Positions 15,084 through 48,759 of a stretch of 64,000 bases of DNA are shown here, one piece after another. The notes beneath the pieces were generated by a model, which did no database searches, had not been told where the DNA came from, and saw only the letters and a list, made by a program, of their open reading frames with translations. Where the stretch lies: positions 3,200 through 67,199 of the forward strand of contig JAGOQP010000006.1 of NCBI GenBank assembly GCA_017991375.1, written 5' to 3'. Source of the stretch: Minisyncoccota bacterium. GTDB taxonomy: Bacteria; Patescibacteriota; Minisyncoccia; UBA6257; JAGOQP01. Positions within the stretch are counted from its first letter, which is position 1. Every line of letters begins with the position of its first letter. The position numbers were made by a program, and so were the translations under genes.

Positions 15084-15140
15084 TTTTTAGTGTGCATTAC
15101 GTCTAATTTTTATACCACATATTATGCTATTTGGTCAAGC
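15084..15140 (-). promoter_or_regulatory. Conserved near-consensus promoter plus leader, copy 1 (drives gene A)
   Basis: On the minus strand: TTGACC (15133-15138), the 18-nt spacer aaatagcataatatgtgg, TATAAA (15109-15114), then the leader attagacgtaatgcacactaaaa. A 40-nt block is identical to the copy at 23926-23982. Confidence 0.65.
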
Positions 15141-21072: not shown

Positions 21073-21136
21073 TGCGCCCCCCTTTTCTTCCGATGATTCA
21101 TCGGATTCTTTTAGTTAATGTGCGTTCTACAATCAT

Positions 21137-21166
21137 ATAATATCACACATCATACCATTCAGTCAA
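21137..21166 (-). promoter_or_regulatory. Promoter of gene A' (same -35/18-nt/-10 architecture as the conserved promoter family)
   Basis: TTGACT (21161-21166) and TATTAT (21137-21142) with an 18-nt spacer. Confidence 0.5.
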
Positions 21167-21233
21167 GATTAAGCGGTAATGTGTTTATATAAGTTCATCT
21201 CCCTGTTATTGATCGTTAGTGGTTAGTCATCAG

Positions 21234-23925: not shown

Positions 23926-23982
23926 ATTTTAGTGTGCATTACGTCTAATTTTTATACCACATATTATAGTAGTAGGTCAAGA
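23926..23982 (-). promoter_or_regulatory. Conserved near-consensus promoter plus leader, copy 2 (drives gene B)
   Basis: TTGACC (23975-23980), spacer aaatagcataatatgtgg, TATAAA (23951-23956), leader attagacgtaatgcacactaaaatac. Confidence 0.65.
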
Positions 23983-44855: not shown

Positions 44856-45989
44856 CTATTGAATAACCCCTCCCCCTAACGCACGTCCCCAGTGAGAATA
44901 AAACACCGCCGATTGCCCAGACGCGGGAAACAATTTTTCTTTTGAACCAAACAAAAGAGTGCCGTTTTGCGTTGAGCCCGCGCCAACGAGCGTTGCGCGT
45001 AAAAGTCGTTGACGATATCGCACACGAACAAGACAGTTAACGCGTTGTTTGTGATCGTACGTCGCACGCGAAGCGCTATCAAGCCAATTAATATCAGTGA
45101 TAGCGCACTCATTGCCATACAAACATTCATCACCCTCATATGCGACAATGAGTTGATTACGCGTAATATCTTTTTTTACCACATAGTACGATTTTCCTGC
45201 TGTGTTTGAAAATCCATGCTTCTGACCGACAGTATAAAACCATACCCCATCGTGCTCACCTACTTTTTTGCCATGCATATCGATAATATCGCCATGAGTA
45301 ATGGGAATGTTGTTTTTGAGAAATTCATCAAACTTAAACTTTCCTAAAAAGCACACCCCCTGTGAATCTTTTTTATCTGCCGTTGGAATCCCAGCTTTGC
45401 GCGCAATAGCGCGCACTTTCTTTTTGGTCAGATGCCCAATAGGAAAGAGAATTTTTTCAAATCGCTCGCGCGGAACCTGCCACAAGAAATATGTTTGATC
45501 TTTTGATAAGTCATTTGCCTGGTAGAGAGCATGCTCTTTTTGTATCAACCACTTACCAAAACTAACTTTTGTTTTTAGACGAGCATAGTGCCCAGAGGCG
45601 ACATAATCGGCACCCAACTCTATGGCCTTATCAAAAAACAGCCCGAATTTGATAGCGCTATTGCACACCACATCGGGATTTGGCGTGATGCCCTTTCTAT
45701 AACCATCTAAGAGATACGACACCACGCGCTGTTTATATTCTTTTTCAAGATCAAAAACATAAAAAGGAATACCCAAGTGTTGGGCTACCCGTCGAGCATC
45801 CTCTCCCTCCTTATCTTGACAGCCATCAACATTGTACCCACGAATAAAGCCGCCGATCACTCGATATCCTTGTTTTTGCAAAAGCAATGCCGCGACAGAC
45901 GAATCCACGCCTCCAGACATCGCAACGAGAACTTTTTTATTTTTTTTATTTTTGGAAAACATTTCTTCTAAGGTTATATGTATTTCCAT
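44856..45989 (-). CDS. mnmA: tRNA-specific 2-thiouridylase MnmA
   Basis: PP-loop KVLVAMSGGVDSSVAALLL; the C-terminal domain is conserved. The start may be at 45962, which overlaps the RT 3' end by 17-44 nt. Confidence 0.9.
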   Translation of the reverse strand: MEIHITLEEMFSKNKKNKKVLVAMSGGVDSSVAALLLQKQGYRVIGGFIRGYNVDGCQDKEGEDARRVAQHLGIPFYVFDLEKEYKQRVVSYLLDGYRKGITPNPDVVCNSAIKFGLFFDKAIELGADYVASGHYARLKTKVSFGKWLIQKEHALYQANDLSKDQTYFLWQVPRERFEKILFPIGHLTKKKVRAIARKAGIPTADKKDSQGVCFLGKFKFDEFLKNNIPITHGDIIDMHGKKVGEHDGVWFYTVGQKHGFSNTAGKSYYVVKKDITRNQLIVAYEGDECLYGNECAITDINWLDSASRATYDHKQRVNCLVRVRYRQRLLRATLVGAGSTQNGTLLFGSKEKLFPASGQSAVFYSHWGRALGGGVIQ

Positions 45990-46929
45990 GCTTTATCAAT
46001 CCAAGATAGGAGTTGACAACTTGAGAGCTGTTAGTAGTCCGCAGTTTTTTTATCATCTTTCTTTTTGTGGAAGTTCTCAGGATTCTGTGGTCAGGAAAGG
46101 AAACCCAACCAAGAAAGTCGATGCCCGAAGATAATGCTTTTATAGAAACCTTGCCGGAATGAAGATGAAGTTTAAGGTTATGTTCGAGGAAATGGGATGT
46201 TTGGGAGATGAGGTTGATGAGATAATCCCTGTTTTCCGACAAAACAACAAAATCATCCGCGTATCTGATGTAACACTTCACTCTGAGGATATGCTTTATA
46301 TATTGATCAAAGGAGTTCATATAGACATTAACAAAGAGCTGGGAAGTGAGATTCCCAAGGGGAAGACCAACATCATCTTTTGTTGAGTGAAAACTGTTTA
46401 TGATTTCTTCAAAAAGCCAGATAATACCCTTGTCTGGAATGTACTGTTTGAGAGTAGAGATAAGAATTTGATGGTCTATATTGTCAAAGAACCTTCTGAT
46501 ATCACACTTGAGAGCCCAACAGGTTTTGGTGTTGTTCTGGCTGACTATATAAAAATAATTTCTGAGTTGATTTATGGCCTTGTGAGTTCCTTTATTGAGA
46601 CGACAAGAATAAGATGTATGGGAGAAAGTTTTATCAAAGAAGGGATAAAGGATTCTGTAGATGGCATGGTGTAATAATCTGTCTCTAACTTGAGCTTTGC
46701 TGATAATTCGAGGTTTAGGGTCAGATATTTTGAATTGTTCGTATCCTCCGTGTTTGTAGGTTTTGTTTTGAAGATCGTTACGAAGTGATATAATATTATT
46801 CATCAGTTGGAATTGAAATAACTGGACATCAGATTTGTTTCTTTTTCCTCTGATAAACTCCCTCCAGGCGAAAAGCAGATTATCAATACTGATAATATCT
46901 TCAAAGTTATGATTCAATATAATTTTCAT
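45946..46929 (-). CDS. Diversity-generating retroelement reverse transcriptase
   Basis: Collinear similarity to Bordetella phage bRT: NLLFAWREF.RGKR, DPKPR.IS...RDRLLHHAI, YSCRLNKGTH, motif A CDIRRFFDNIDH, motif B GLPLGNLTSQLFVNVY (the DGR SQ variant), motif C IRYADDFVVL, and GIDFLGW. Confidence 0.88.
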   Translation of the reverse strand: MKIILNHNFEDIISIDNLLFAWREFIRGKRNKSDVQLFQFQLMNNIISLRNDLQNKTYKHGGYEQFKISDPKPRIISKAQVRDRLLHHAIYRILYPFFDKTFSHTSYSCRLNKGTHKAINQLRNYFYIVSQNNTKTCWALKCDIRRFFDNIDHQILISTLKQYIPDKGIIWLFEEIINSFHSTKDDVGLPLGNLTSQLFVNVYMNSFDQYIKHILRVKCYIRYADDFVVLSENRDYLINLISQTSHFLEHNLKLHLHSGKVSIKALSSGIDFLGWVSFPDHRILRTSTKRKMIKKLRTTNSSQVVNSYLGLIKHGNTYNLRRNVFQK

Positions 46930-46945
46930 AAAGATTTTTCTTTAA

Positions 46946-46955
46946 CCCCCCCCCC
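46946..46955. repeat. C10/G10 homopolymer tract in the divergent RT/avd promoter region
   Basis: cccccccccc lies 17 nt upstream of the RT start codon and between the putative -35 and the TATAAT (46968-46973) of avd. Confidence 0.8.
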
Positions 46956-46990
46956 GCAACAATCTGACTATAATACAGAAGCTGGTTGGT

Positions 46991-47317
46991 GTGTATAAGT
47001 TATGGCATGAGTTTCTAAATCATTTTCATAAACAATCCAGATACACATTGGGAGAAAAGATTGATAATTTGTTTATTGAAATAATAGAGTTAGTTTTTAC
47101 AGCTATACATCTGAGCAAAGATCAAAAATTTCCGTATCTGCAGAAAGCCAGTATAAAGTTGGATATTCTAAAATTTTTTGTTCAAATGACTTGGGAAATG
47201 GGAATTTTGGACAATAAAAAATATGTTTTGCTTTCGGAAGATTTAGAAGAAATTGGTAAAATGTTGGGAGGATGGTTGAGGCAGTTTATAAAAAACTCCC
47301 CGCAGAAAGCGAGGTGA
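46991..47317 (+). CDS. avd: DGR accessory variability determinant (Avd, four-helix-bundle protein)
   Basis: 108 aa. The C-terminus EDLEEIGKMLGGWLRQFIKN matches bAvd VLIAEVGRILGSWIARVNRK. GTG start. Divergent from the RT. Confidence 0.65.
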   Translation: MYKLWHEFLNHFHKQSRYTLGEKIDNLFIEIIELVFTAIHLSKDQKFPYLQKASIKLDILKFFVQMTWEMGILDNKKYVLLSEDLEEIGKMLGGWLRQFIKNSPQKAR

Positions 47318-47321
47318 AAAC

Positions 47322-47456
47322 AAAACGACTTTCGGAATCCAACGACGCGGCAGTAGGAGTTGAAGTTGTTACTGAGCCAATTGTCGTTCCGATTCCACTG
47401 GCCATCGTTGAAGTTCAGGTACTGAACGTTGCGATTGCCGTTCTCGTCGAGCAGAA
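47322..47456 (-). repeat. DGR template repeat (TR)
   Basis: 135-bp direct repeat of 47794-47928. At all 12 mismatched positions this copy has A on the minus strand, and the codons are AAC/AAT-rich (NGNRNVQYLNFNDGQWNRNDNWLSNNFNSY). Confidence 0.85.
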
Positions 47457-47741
47457 ATGTATGCGACACCATCTATGCCACCATCCCTTAAATACTTTCG
47501 GGATTGAATATTGCTTGGAATCTCCTCCGACAATTATCGGAGTAATTCTCCAGCGTCGCATACCAAGTTGTTTTATTTTTGGAAATATGCAAACTCCCTG
47601 ACGCAAGGCGTACCCGGCGTCACTCTCATTACACATATTTCAGAATTCGGTCGCGTAAAGCCCTGCCTACCAGTAGGCAAACCGCACGCATACGAACCTA
47701 ATATCCGTTTCCACCATATCAGTTTTGTTGAAAATTTAAAA

Positions 47742-47788
47742 GGGACCAAGGAGTCAAGCGCGGCAAGGCGCAAGAACTCCAAGGTCCC
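47742..47788 (-). promoter_or_regulatory. GC hairpin immediately 3' of the VR (DGR target-site hairpin / terminator)
   Basis: Minus strand: GGGACCTTGGAGT-tcttgcgccttgccgcgcttg-ACTCCTTGGTCCC followed by a T-run; central TT-TT mismatch. It lies 10 nt after the target-gene stop. Confidence 0.6.
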
Positions 47789-47793
47789 AAGGG

Positions 47794-47928
47794 AAAACTA
47801 CTTGCGGAATCCAACGACGCGGCAGCAGGAGTTGAAGTAGCTACTGAGCCAATAGTCGTTCCGATACCACTGGCCAACGTGGAAGATCAGGCACTGAACG
47901 TGGCGATTGCCGTACTCGTCGAGCAGAA
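47794..47928 (-). repeat. DGR variable repeat (VR) at the 3' end of the target gene
   Basis: It differs from the TR at 12 positions, all TR adenines (coding strand). Encodes ...LLDEYGNRHVQCLIFHVGQWYRNDYWLSSYFNSCCRVVGFRK*. Confidence 0.85.
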
Positions 47929-48391
47929 CCGTACCGGGGAAGATCAGTACGAACTTCTGCCACTCTTCCGGAACGAGTTCCGGATGGGTAGCTAGACGCT
48001 CGAATGTCCGGTTGCCCGCAGGGAAGGTCTTGGCGAGAGAGCGCTTGAGCATCTCCTCGCCATTAACGCAGGACTCGCCGGCAGAGCAGAACTCGATCAA
48101 CTCGAGCTCCACGTCCTTGCCGGCAAAGGGCTCTTCGTGGTTTTCTGCGACCTCCTTTGCCCAAGGGGGCAGAGTGAGAGCGGAGGGGAGAACAAGGCGA
48201 ATGATGTTGCGCGCCTTCCGCCCAGCCTCCACGATATCGCCAGCCCATTTGTCAATGAGCGGCGACCCGTCCTTGAGGGCATTGTACACGTCCTCGATTG
48301 TGCCACCAAGCCGCTCGACCGCCCTGAAAAGGGCGATGAAAAAGCTGGCGGCAAACCCAAGCCCACTCACGATTGAAGTATTCTTAGCCAT
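47798..48391 (-). CDS. DGR target (variable) protein, small secreted/membrane-anchored
   Basis: Start trimmed to MAKNTSIVSGLGFAASFFIALF (signal/TM) with RBS GGGGGAGGAAG. The VR forms the C-terminal 44 aa. Confidence 0.7.
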   Translation of the reverse strand: MAKNTSIVSGLGFAASFFIALFRAVERLGGTIEDVYNALKDGSPLIDKWAGDIVEAGRKARNIIRLVLPSALTLPPWAKEVAENHEEPFAGKDVELELIEFCSAGESCVNGEEMLKRSLAKTFPAGNRTFERLATHPELVPEEWQKFVLIFPGTVLLDEYGNRHVQCLIFHVGQWYRNDYWLSSYFNSCCRVVGFRK

Positions 48392-48491
48392 ATCTTCCTC
48401 CCCCGGCCCCTCGTTCCGACTCCCATCGGAACCCCAGACCGTTTTGTAGCGCTTCACTCCTCCTCGAGCTCATCTCTTAAAGAAGTTCAGC

Positions 48492-48560
48492 GTTTGTATG
48501 CAGTTTTTGACACATAACATATATGTTATGTCTACATTGACCCAAAAACTGCATACAAAC
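48492..48560 (-). promoter_or_regulatory. 17-bp perfect inverted repeat flanking a 20-bp palindrome in the target-gene leader
   Basis: gtttgtatgcagttttt ... aaaaactgcatacaaac, with the inner palindrome acataacatatatgttatgt. It lies between the promoter (48602-48631) and the start codon. Confidence 0.6.
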
Positions 48561-48574
48561 ATCTTCCACAAGTA

Positions 48575-48640
48575 GTATTTTAGCGTGCTTTTAACAAACA
48601 GATTATAACATATTATATGCTATTTTGTCAAGTGCTTTCG
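48575..48640 (-). promoter_or_regulatory. Conserved near-consensus promoter plus leader, copy 3 (drives the DGR target gene)
   Basis: TTGACA (48626-48631), spacer aaatagcatataatatgt (18 nt), TATAAT (48602-48607), leader ...aaaagcacgctaaaatac. Confidence 0.65.
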
Positions 48641-48759
48641 GGATGAAATTAGTTATTTGAAAAAATATAAACACATCGTTTTAAAAAGCAAAGGCGCTCT
48701 CTCAAGCGCCTTCCATCTCCGTTTTTAGTTATTATTAATAATTGCCAATTACAAGTCAT

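Follow-up and report, generated by a model that had tools for sequence, protein, structure and literature searches.

The diversity-generating retroelement (DGR) described here raises the question of where such an element can keep the RNA signals for priming cDNA synthesis when their usual place is occupied by an inverted gene. Mechanistic knowledge of DGR reverse transcription comes entirely from BPP-1, in which a spacer 3' of the template repeat (TR) primes and positions cDNA synthesis, yet the bacteria of the candidate phyla radiation (CPR), the largest natural DGR reservoir, leave no room for a spacer in that position. The element lies in a 64,000-nucleotide stretch of contig JAGOQP010000006.1 of a Minisyncoccota bacterium (assembly GCA_017991375.1, positions 3,200 to 67,199, forward strand), which we refer to as the window, and its accessory gene, avd, is inverted between the TR and the reverse transcriptase (RT) gene. 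We consider it probable that this is an ordinary, active CPR DGR of the B3 class whose TR is carried within a self-contained noncoding RNA (ncRNA) gene of ~420 nt, and that the RNA is used in trans and is possibly permuted.

The RT gene (45946-46929, minus strand) encodes a 327-residue protein that matches Pfam RVT_1 (E=4.6e-25) and whose translation, read directly from the open reading frame (ORF), carries LPLGNLTSQ and YADD. The LGNLTSQ/YADD pattern ([LIV]GxxxSQ in motif 4, and YxDD) is the one usual in DGR RTs; among NCBIfam models the nearest is that of a group II intron RT, with a score below the cut-off of that model, as is expected for DGR RTs. The avd gene (46964-47317) is on the plus strand. 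Its ORF at 46991-47317 matches PF22296 (bAvd-like, E=6.4e-15), the match covers model positions 2-106 when the upstream codons are added (E=1.2e-15), and NCBIfam NF033474 (DivGenRetAVD) is matched with E=1.1e-21 and 77 bits against a cut-off of 80, model positions 1-104 aligning from residue 7. An earlier note on this DNA, made from its letters alone, described RT and avd as divergent genes, an arrangement that both Pfam matches bear out, but the 61-bp intergenic region that it gave depends on the first canonical avd start, GTG at 46991. Because the Avd family models align in frame from the CTG codon at 46964, a position occupied by TTG, CTG or ATG in relatives, the gap is probably no longer than 34 nt, and the GTG start is probably mis-called by nine codons in the same frame and on the same strand. 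At the other end, the avd stop codon is at 47315-47317 and TR homology begins 4-5 nt beyond it, in agreement with the 5 nt given earlier, and therefore the TR and avd abut tail-to-tail and avd and RT head-to-head. With the avd stop so close to the TR there is no spacer-type gap of ~140 nt between the TR and RT, and the note was right that a BPP-1-type spacer has no room there.

The TR (47322-47461) and the variable repeat (VR; 47794-47933, minus strand) constitute a 140-nt repeat family of the window (family D3) with 89% identity between the two copies, and no further TR or VR copies were found within the 64 kb. Minus-strand adenines of the TR, which has 37 A in 140 nt (26% A), account for 13 of the 15 mismatches in a blastn comparison and 12 of 13 in an alignment. 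Because essentially all the mismatched positions are A in 47322-47461 and any base in 47794-47933, the sense strand of the TR is the minus strand, which matches the orientation of the target gene as had been claimed. The target gene is a 219-residue ORF (47798-48457, minus strand) with the VR at its 3' end, terminating at the stop codon, and its product matches no family in Pfam or NCBIfam. The GC content of the target gene (47800-48450) is ~57-60%, compared with ~32-46% in the rest of the region (~38% in the surroundings), and horizontal origin and the composition of the non-VR part are both possibilities. Taken together, the locus has a DGR-type RT, an A-biased TR/VR pair, a VR at the 3' end of its target, an Avd protein, and A-specific diversification.

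The architecture had been regarded as unusual, and it is so only relative to BPP-1, because it has already been catalogued. Wu et al. 2018 (NAR 46:11, PMC5758913) distinguish the types B1 (avd-TR-RT), B2 (avd-RT-TR) and B3 (TR-(avd)-RT), where parentheses denote the reverse strand; they report that B3 accounts for 90% of CPR DGRs, and that DGR components, even TR and RT, may sit on different strands and need not be co-transcribed. CPR DGRs form a clade of their own (DGR clade 2), and their targets are without recognisable domains (Roux et al. 2021, PMC8144416). With the RT protein as query, scans gave 147 loci, the close ones having RTs that are 45-69% identical; these close relatives come almost entirely from metagenomes and Patescibacteria/CPR metagenome-assembled genomes (MAGs), and among the 18 closest that derive from genomes, nearly all bear a CPR MAG label. 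The Avd homolog is on the opposite strand to the RT gene and immediately upstream of it in all 64 loci in which avd is detectable by tblastn. Similarly, the TR is in the RT sense and ends beside the avd stop in all 46 loci (window included) that have both Avd and an A-biased TR/VR pair, the blast alignment ending 3-77 nt from that stop in the first 17 of the 46. The window cassette is thus a member of the known CPR (Patescibacteria) B3 class, in the order target/VR, TR, (avd), RT, an architecture that is textbook for CPR DGRs and by itself adds nothing. Some variations were seen among the relatives. L018 and L108 have kept the core of leader (the segment 5' of the TR, see below), TR, (avd) and RT, but their VR is distant from the TR and on the other strand, and in L116 (1411-1986) the VR, leader and TR lie downstream of the 3' end of an RT gene and may belong to a second tandem cassette.

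The DGR is active, and its VR has been recently rewritten at TR-adenine positions. A contig from Logan ERR7015365 (L148) encodes an identical RT and is 98.7% identical to the window over 5.7 kb. It has no differences across 46900-47780, a segment containing the avd-RT junction, avd, the TR and the leader, and 26 of the 73 differences are concentrated within 47800-47999; in and around the VR, 23 differences are listed, and 19 of these fall at TR adenines.

The interval between VR and TR is 264-452 nt long and alignable across loci, and it contains indications that the TR belongs to an RNA gene of its own. Promoter, terminator and repeat-tract counts given here are based on 38 non-redundant loci. 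In the window, an extended -10 element, TGATATGGT (47713-47721, minus strand), is the predicted promoter of the TR RNA with a predicted start near 47706, and the motif TGnTAnnnT recurs on the RT-sense strand of 28 of the 38 loci, 190-315 nt 5' of the TR, compared with 13.8% of random 140-nt windows. From the -10 element to the TR there is a leader of ~230 nt, for which RNAalifold predicts 42 base pairs in an alignment of 30 sequences, 35 of them with compensatory double changes. The pairing is specific in that 93% of cells are paired, compared with 39-50% when the partners are slid by 1-3 columns, with 329 double-change cells compared with 52-94 in the slid controls, and none of 500 shuffles matched the covariation values. 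Several of the pairs are near-invariant G-U pairs, and because of this the structure exists on the RT-sense (window minus) strand only, which agrees with the proposal that the TR RNA is made antisense to avd. With a covariance model of the leader core, exactly one match per locus is obtained in 54 loci, all on the RT-sense strand, including loci outside the training set; those that were checked lie directly 5' of the TR, and there is a single match in the window. The model has no matches in distant, non-B3 DGR loci. A search of 45800-48700 against Rfam with E up to 5 gave chance-level matches only (two miRNA families, and anti-hemB on the terminator hairpin), with no match to the motifs RT-1 to RT-19, of which RT-10 is the BPP-1 spacer.

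The predicted leader structure is composed of five helical elements, H1-H5, together with one strand of a further duplex, P0, which reaches across the TR (all on the minus strand). Hairpins H1 (47653-47689) and H2 (47599-47623), with coordinates from the minimum free energy (MFE) fold, have nine pairs each, of which six and eight respectively are changed on both sides in the 30-sequence alignment. The H3 helix is formed by a 5' strand at 47553-47564 and a 3' strand at 47459-47470, directly 5' of the TR, and is indicated by both covariation and the MFE fold; it spans 12 bp, 10 of its pairs are changed on both sides, and 96% of cells are paired, with cognate strands pairing at -13.9 kcal/mol and non-cognate strands at -4.9 kcal/mol. 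This duplex (47564-47553 with 47470-47459) stops 2-3 nt short of the start of TR/VR homology and is a candidate for a duplex resembling the BPP-1 element known as the cPRT stop. Enclosed by H3 are hairpins H4 (47517-47551) and H5 (47484-47503), both from covariation and the single-sequence MFE fold, which are joined by a conserved A-rich single-stranded linker resembling GAAUAAGAUWCA. Directly 5' of H3 is the candidate primer-like strand of P0, AAAAAUAAAACAACUU (47565-47580; consensus AAAUGAAGAUACUUG), and its partner just 3' of the TR, AAGUCGUUUUGUUUU in the window (47317-47331; consensus UCUUCAUUU), is the candidate template strand and spans the avd stop codon and the end of the TR, at the element denoted IMH* (IMH, initiation of mutagenic homing). 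Cognate P0 strands pair with a mean of -7.39 kcal/mol and non-cognate strands with -4.70 kcal/mol, a difference reached in none of 10,000 permutations (p<1e-4). The MFE fold of the window's own sequence recovers P0 (47317-47331 with 47565-47580), H1 to H5 and the terminator.

The predicted terminator of the TR RNA is a hairpin (CCTCGC/GCGGGG) with a U-tract found by a terminator scan at 47288-47314 on the minus strand, the hairpin occupying 47314-47298 and being followed by AGTTTTTTAT. Hairpins of 6-12 bp followed by a U-tract occur ~10-40 nt after the TR in 29 of the 38 loci by strict criteria, with about six more recognizable by eye, and the background is 6% of random 100-nt windows. In loci with a long gap between TR and avd the hairpin remains beside the TR, and one of these, L014, has two separate and opposed terminators, one for the TR RNA and one for avd. 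The window is among the loci with a short gap, in which the final ~10 avd codons, coding for a variable tail beyond a conserved LGGW, are overlapped in antisense by the hairpin and U-tract. We note that this Avd tail often contains K-N-S(-P), the residues obtained when the conserved GGGAGUUUUU of the TR-RNA hairpin and U-tract is read in antisense, and that the Avd proteins of L013, L014 and L076, in which the terminator is in a longer gap, are without that tail.

Interpretation of these elements leans on the BPP-1 RNA. The BPP-1 cassette is mtd-avd-TR-Sp-brt and its RNA forms a complex with bRT-Avd (Handa et al. 2018, PMC6182149; bioRxiv 10.1101/2023.10.23.563531). Proceeding 3' from the TR, the spacer (Sp) contains first an Avd-binding stem-loop, and then a primer strand, Sp47-56, that pairs with TR117-129; two nt after the primer strand begins Sp59-70, which together with 11 nt located just 5' of the TR makes up the paired cPRT stop, and last come a short stem-loop, unpaired adenosines, a single-stranded 'thumb ring', and a bRT-binding stem-loop (bioRxiv 10.1101/2023.10.23.563531).

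We propose that the TR RNA of the window is a discrete minus-strand ncRNA of ~420 nt, extending from about 47706 to 47288, that would be transcribed from its own extended -10 promoter between VR and TR, end at a hairpin and U-tract overlapping only the non-conserved C-terminal tail of avd, and act in trans with the RT-Avd complex. The functions that BPP-1 places in the spacer 3' of the TR would here be supplied from its 5' side. H3 would close on the 5' edge of the TR in the manner of the cPRT stop, the strand directly 5' of H3 would pair with the sequence just 3' of the TR in the manner of a template:primer duplex, and the hairpin after the TR, a possible counterpart of the Avd-binding stem-loop, would double as the terminator. 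The order and polarity of the elements would match those of BPP-1 if the RNA were circularly permuted, with the chain break falling between the Avd-binding stem-loop and the primer strand. This is the most economical reading of the resemblance, and we give it roughly the same chance of being right as of being wrong. The ~230-nt leader of such an RNA would contain the primer-like and stop-duplex strands, followed by two hairpins, the first a short one, with an A-rich single-stranded segment between them, and only the stem-loop resembling the Avd-binding element would be left 3' of the TR, where it would be overprinted in antisense on the Avd C-terminal tail (the 'KNS' motif).

Several considerations weigh against a self-contained TR RNA of this kind. 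The promoter, start site and terminator are all predictions, and the H3, H4, H5 and P0 elements are mapped onto those of BPP-1 by position and topology only. P0 pairs an A-rich strand with a U-rich strand in a register that shifts between loci, and its support comes from the energy-based cognate test and not from column-by-column covariation. Handa et al. reported putative stop duplexes in many DGRs, CPR members included, from 40 nt upstream and 100 nt downstream of the TR, and a partner downstream of the TR is therefore implied; a comparison of that style among our loci, of 40 nt upstream with 100 nt downstream, gave no cognate signal (p=0.36). Partial read-through from the TR RNA into the RT gene may also occur, because no clear RT promoter was found, the best candidates being only 9-of-12 matches at 46997-46967, and the strict co-orientation of TR and RT would fit read-through too.

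The last of these points leads to a model in which the hairpin after the TR is mainly an Avd-binding stem-loop and only a leaky terminator, such that some transcripts double as RT mRNA and damp avd by antisense transcription, with the priming elements nevertheless located in the 5' leader. The search of the junction gave no convincing promoter for either RT or avd; the lack of a clear RT promoter is in keeping with this model, as is the hairpin stem, CUCCC...GGGAG, being more conserved than is usual for terminators. The U-tract is also conserved, however, and is strand-specific, with 29 of the 38 loci having the hairpin and tract in the RT sense and only 3 of 38 in the avd sense, and the two opposed terminators of L014 likewise count against the model. 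We regard the leaky-terminator model as unlikely, if a serious contender.

A distinctly poorer account is the one advanced in the earlier note, that a single long minus-strand transcript must run from the TR through antisense avd into RT, with antisense avd serving as the priming spacer. It is attractive in that the TR and RT genes are always co-directional with only avd between them, a strong independent RT promoter was not found, and the BPP-1 spacer sits between TR and RT. However, obligatory read-through is not favoured, given the hairpin and U-tract that follow the TR at a frequency so far above background, and a spacer role for antisense avd finds no backing in its sequence: RNAalifold, applied to 30 codon-aligned avd genes, predicts no conserved pairs in either orientation, and a 110-nt segment of antisense avd has no cognate complementarity to either the strand just 5' of the TR (p=0.23) or the leader (p=0.24). 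The covarying, spacer-like structure is all 5' of the TR. We think this long-transcript model improbable, and prefer the discrete TR RNA. The suggestions that the inverted avd results from faulty assembly or a recent local inversion, or that its ORF is mis-called or spurious, found no support and can be set aside with near certainty, being refuted by two Avd family models that match the plus strand, by an avd orientation that is the same in all 64 independent loci, drawn from many MAGs and metagenomes, and by the independent contig L148, which is identical across the region.

Between the divergent start codons of avd and RT is a homopolymer, C10 on the plus strand and G10 in the RT sense (46946-46955), that occupies much of the gap of no more than 34 nt and is the sole G/C run of at least 7 in the window; it is a candidate hypervariable tract, of the phase-variation or slippage kind. 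G runs of 8-14 nt in the RT sense are present at the junction in 33 of the 38 loci, and only one G/C run of at least 8 occurs elsewhere in the 248 kb of these loci. The tract is at the same position in L001-L017, L068-L107 and L113, and is replaced by (CT)n in L097 and by (GT)n in L105. In L005 (1340-2470) an insertion of ~1.1 kb with an apparent opposite-strand ORF divides the poly-G tract from the RT start, and RT is therefore separated from avd. Tract lengths differ within near-identical pairs, being 9 and 8 in L006 and L093, 13 and 11 in L008 and L094, and 9 and 8 in L069 and L072; the first pair differs by tract length only, and the other two have one further mismatch each. The sequences compared are assemblies and not reads, and the length differences may reflect homopolymer assembly error.

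Tracts of this type are familiar from phase-variable systems, in which contingency repeats occupy divergent promoter and 5' regions; examples are the (TA)n repeat that separates hifA from hifB in Haemophilus influenzae and the poly-G/C tracts of Neisseria. The junction tract looks like a simple-sequence contingency tract acting on avd, RT, or both, and could be an on/off or throttle switch for hypermutation. We also considered a coding frameshift switch with a start codon upstream of the tract; at current tract lengths an in-frame upstream start is available in only 20 of 52 loci. A start at the TTG, CTG or ATG about 3-4 codons after the tract is likelier for avd than one upstream. The combined proposal, that the B3 DGR RNA is a circularly permuted version of the BPP-1 RNA and that RT and/or Avd are additionally gated by a poly-G/C tract, is more tentative than the discrete TR RNA itself, and we place it a little short of an even chance.

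Immediately 3' of the target stop codon are about six degenerate CCTTGG-like repeats with a period of ~9 nt (47740-47797, minus strand). Nearly all related loci have this array after their VR, even L018 and L108, whose VRs are remote from the TR, and it may take over from the GC-rich hairpin of BPP-1 in marking the target for retrohoming. Pairing of a leader ACUUGG motif with the array was considered and rejected on inspection, as the leader motif changes without a matching change in the array in L010, L100, L002 and L079.

Two further observations concern the region upstream of the target gene. L148 has an insertion of ~1.08 kb (215-1293; at ~48633-48645 of the window) encoding a 335-residue HTH_38 protein, probably an IS30-family transposase. 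The insertion separates efp from the target gene and lies just upstream of the consensus promoter of the latter. Four copies of a 55-nt repeat family, D2, are present in the window (48578-48632, 15085-15139, 21113-21167 and 23927-23981). In the copy that lies upstream of the target, the minus strand has a perfect TTGACA-18-TGnTATAAT promoter, because of which D2 may be a reused strong-promoter cassette.

We found no description in the searchable literature of a self-contained or permuted DGR RNA, or of a repeat tract at the avd-RT junction, and nothing relevant that links DGRs to covariation, phase variation or homopolymers. Similarly, the searchable papers on CPR B3 DGRs do not describe the 5' leader RNA, the promoter and terminator of the TR RNA, the poly-G/C tract or the CTTGG-like array, and the terms 'RNA structure' and 'spacer' are absent from the text of Wu et al. 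2018 (PMC5758913). The leader, the two flanking duplexes and the 3' hairpin define a concrete RNA construct of ~420 nt (47706 to 47288) for in vitro reconstitution of a CPR DGR, which could show whether cis-priming works from a permuted RNA, and the conserved tract at the avd-RT junction points to a testable means by which cells could turn hypermutation on and off.

Compared with contingency tracts of the hifA/hifB and Neisseria type, the junction tract is similar in being an 8-14-nt homopolymer between two divergent start codons, in being replaced by other simple repeats in two relatives of the window locus, and in differing in length between otherwise identical sequences, although these length differences may be assembly errors. 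Relative to other CPR B3 DGRs (PMC5758913, PMC8144416) the window has the same gene order and strands, the same A-specific TR/VR mismatches, and the same single adjacent target with a C-terminal VR and no recognisable domain, with no difference at the level of the cassette. With BPP-1 it shares a DGR-type RT, Avd, a TR/VR pair with A-mutagenesis and a GC-rich, IMH-like repeat end, as well as a stem-loop directly 3' of the TR and a predicted 11-12-bp duplex that ends just 5' of the TR and adjoins, on one strand, a second duplex with the TR 3' end. It differs in that avd is inverted between TR and RT, and because of this there is no 140-nt spacer 3' of the TR; in that the 3' stem-loop is followed by a U-tract, and a repeat array takes the place of the GC-rich hairpin downstream of the IMH; in having no Rfam match, RT-10 included; and in having a permuted connectivity, as both duplexes have their partner strands 5' of the TR, where two further hairpins and the conserved single-stranded segments also lie.

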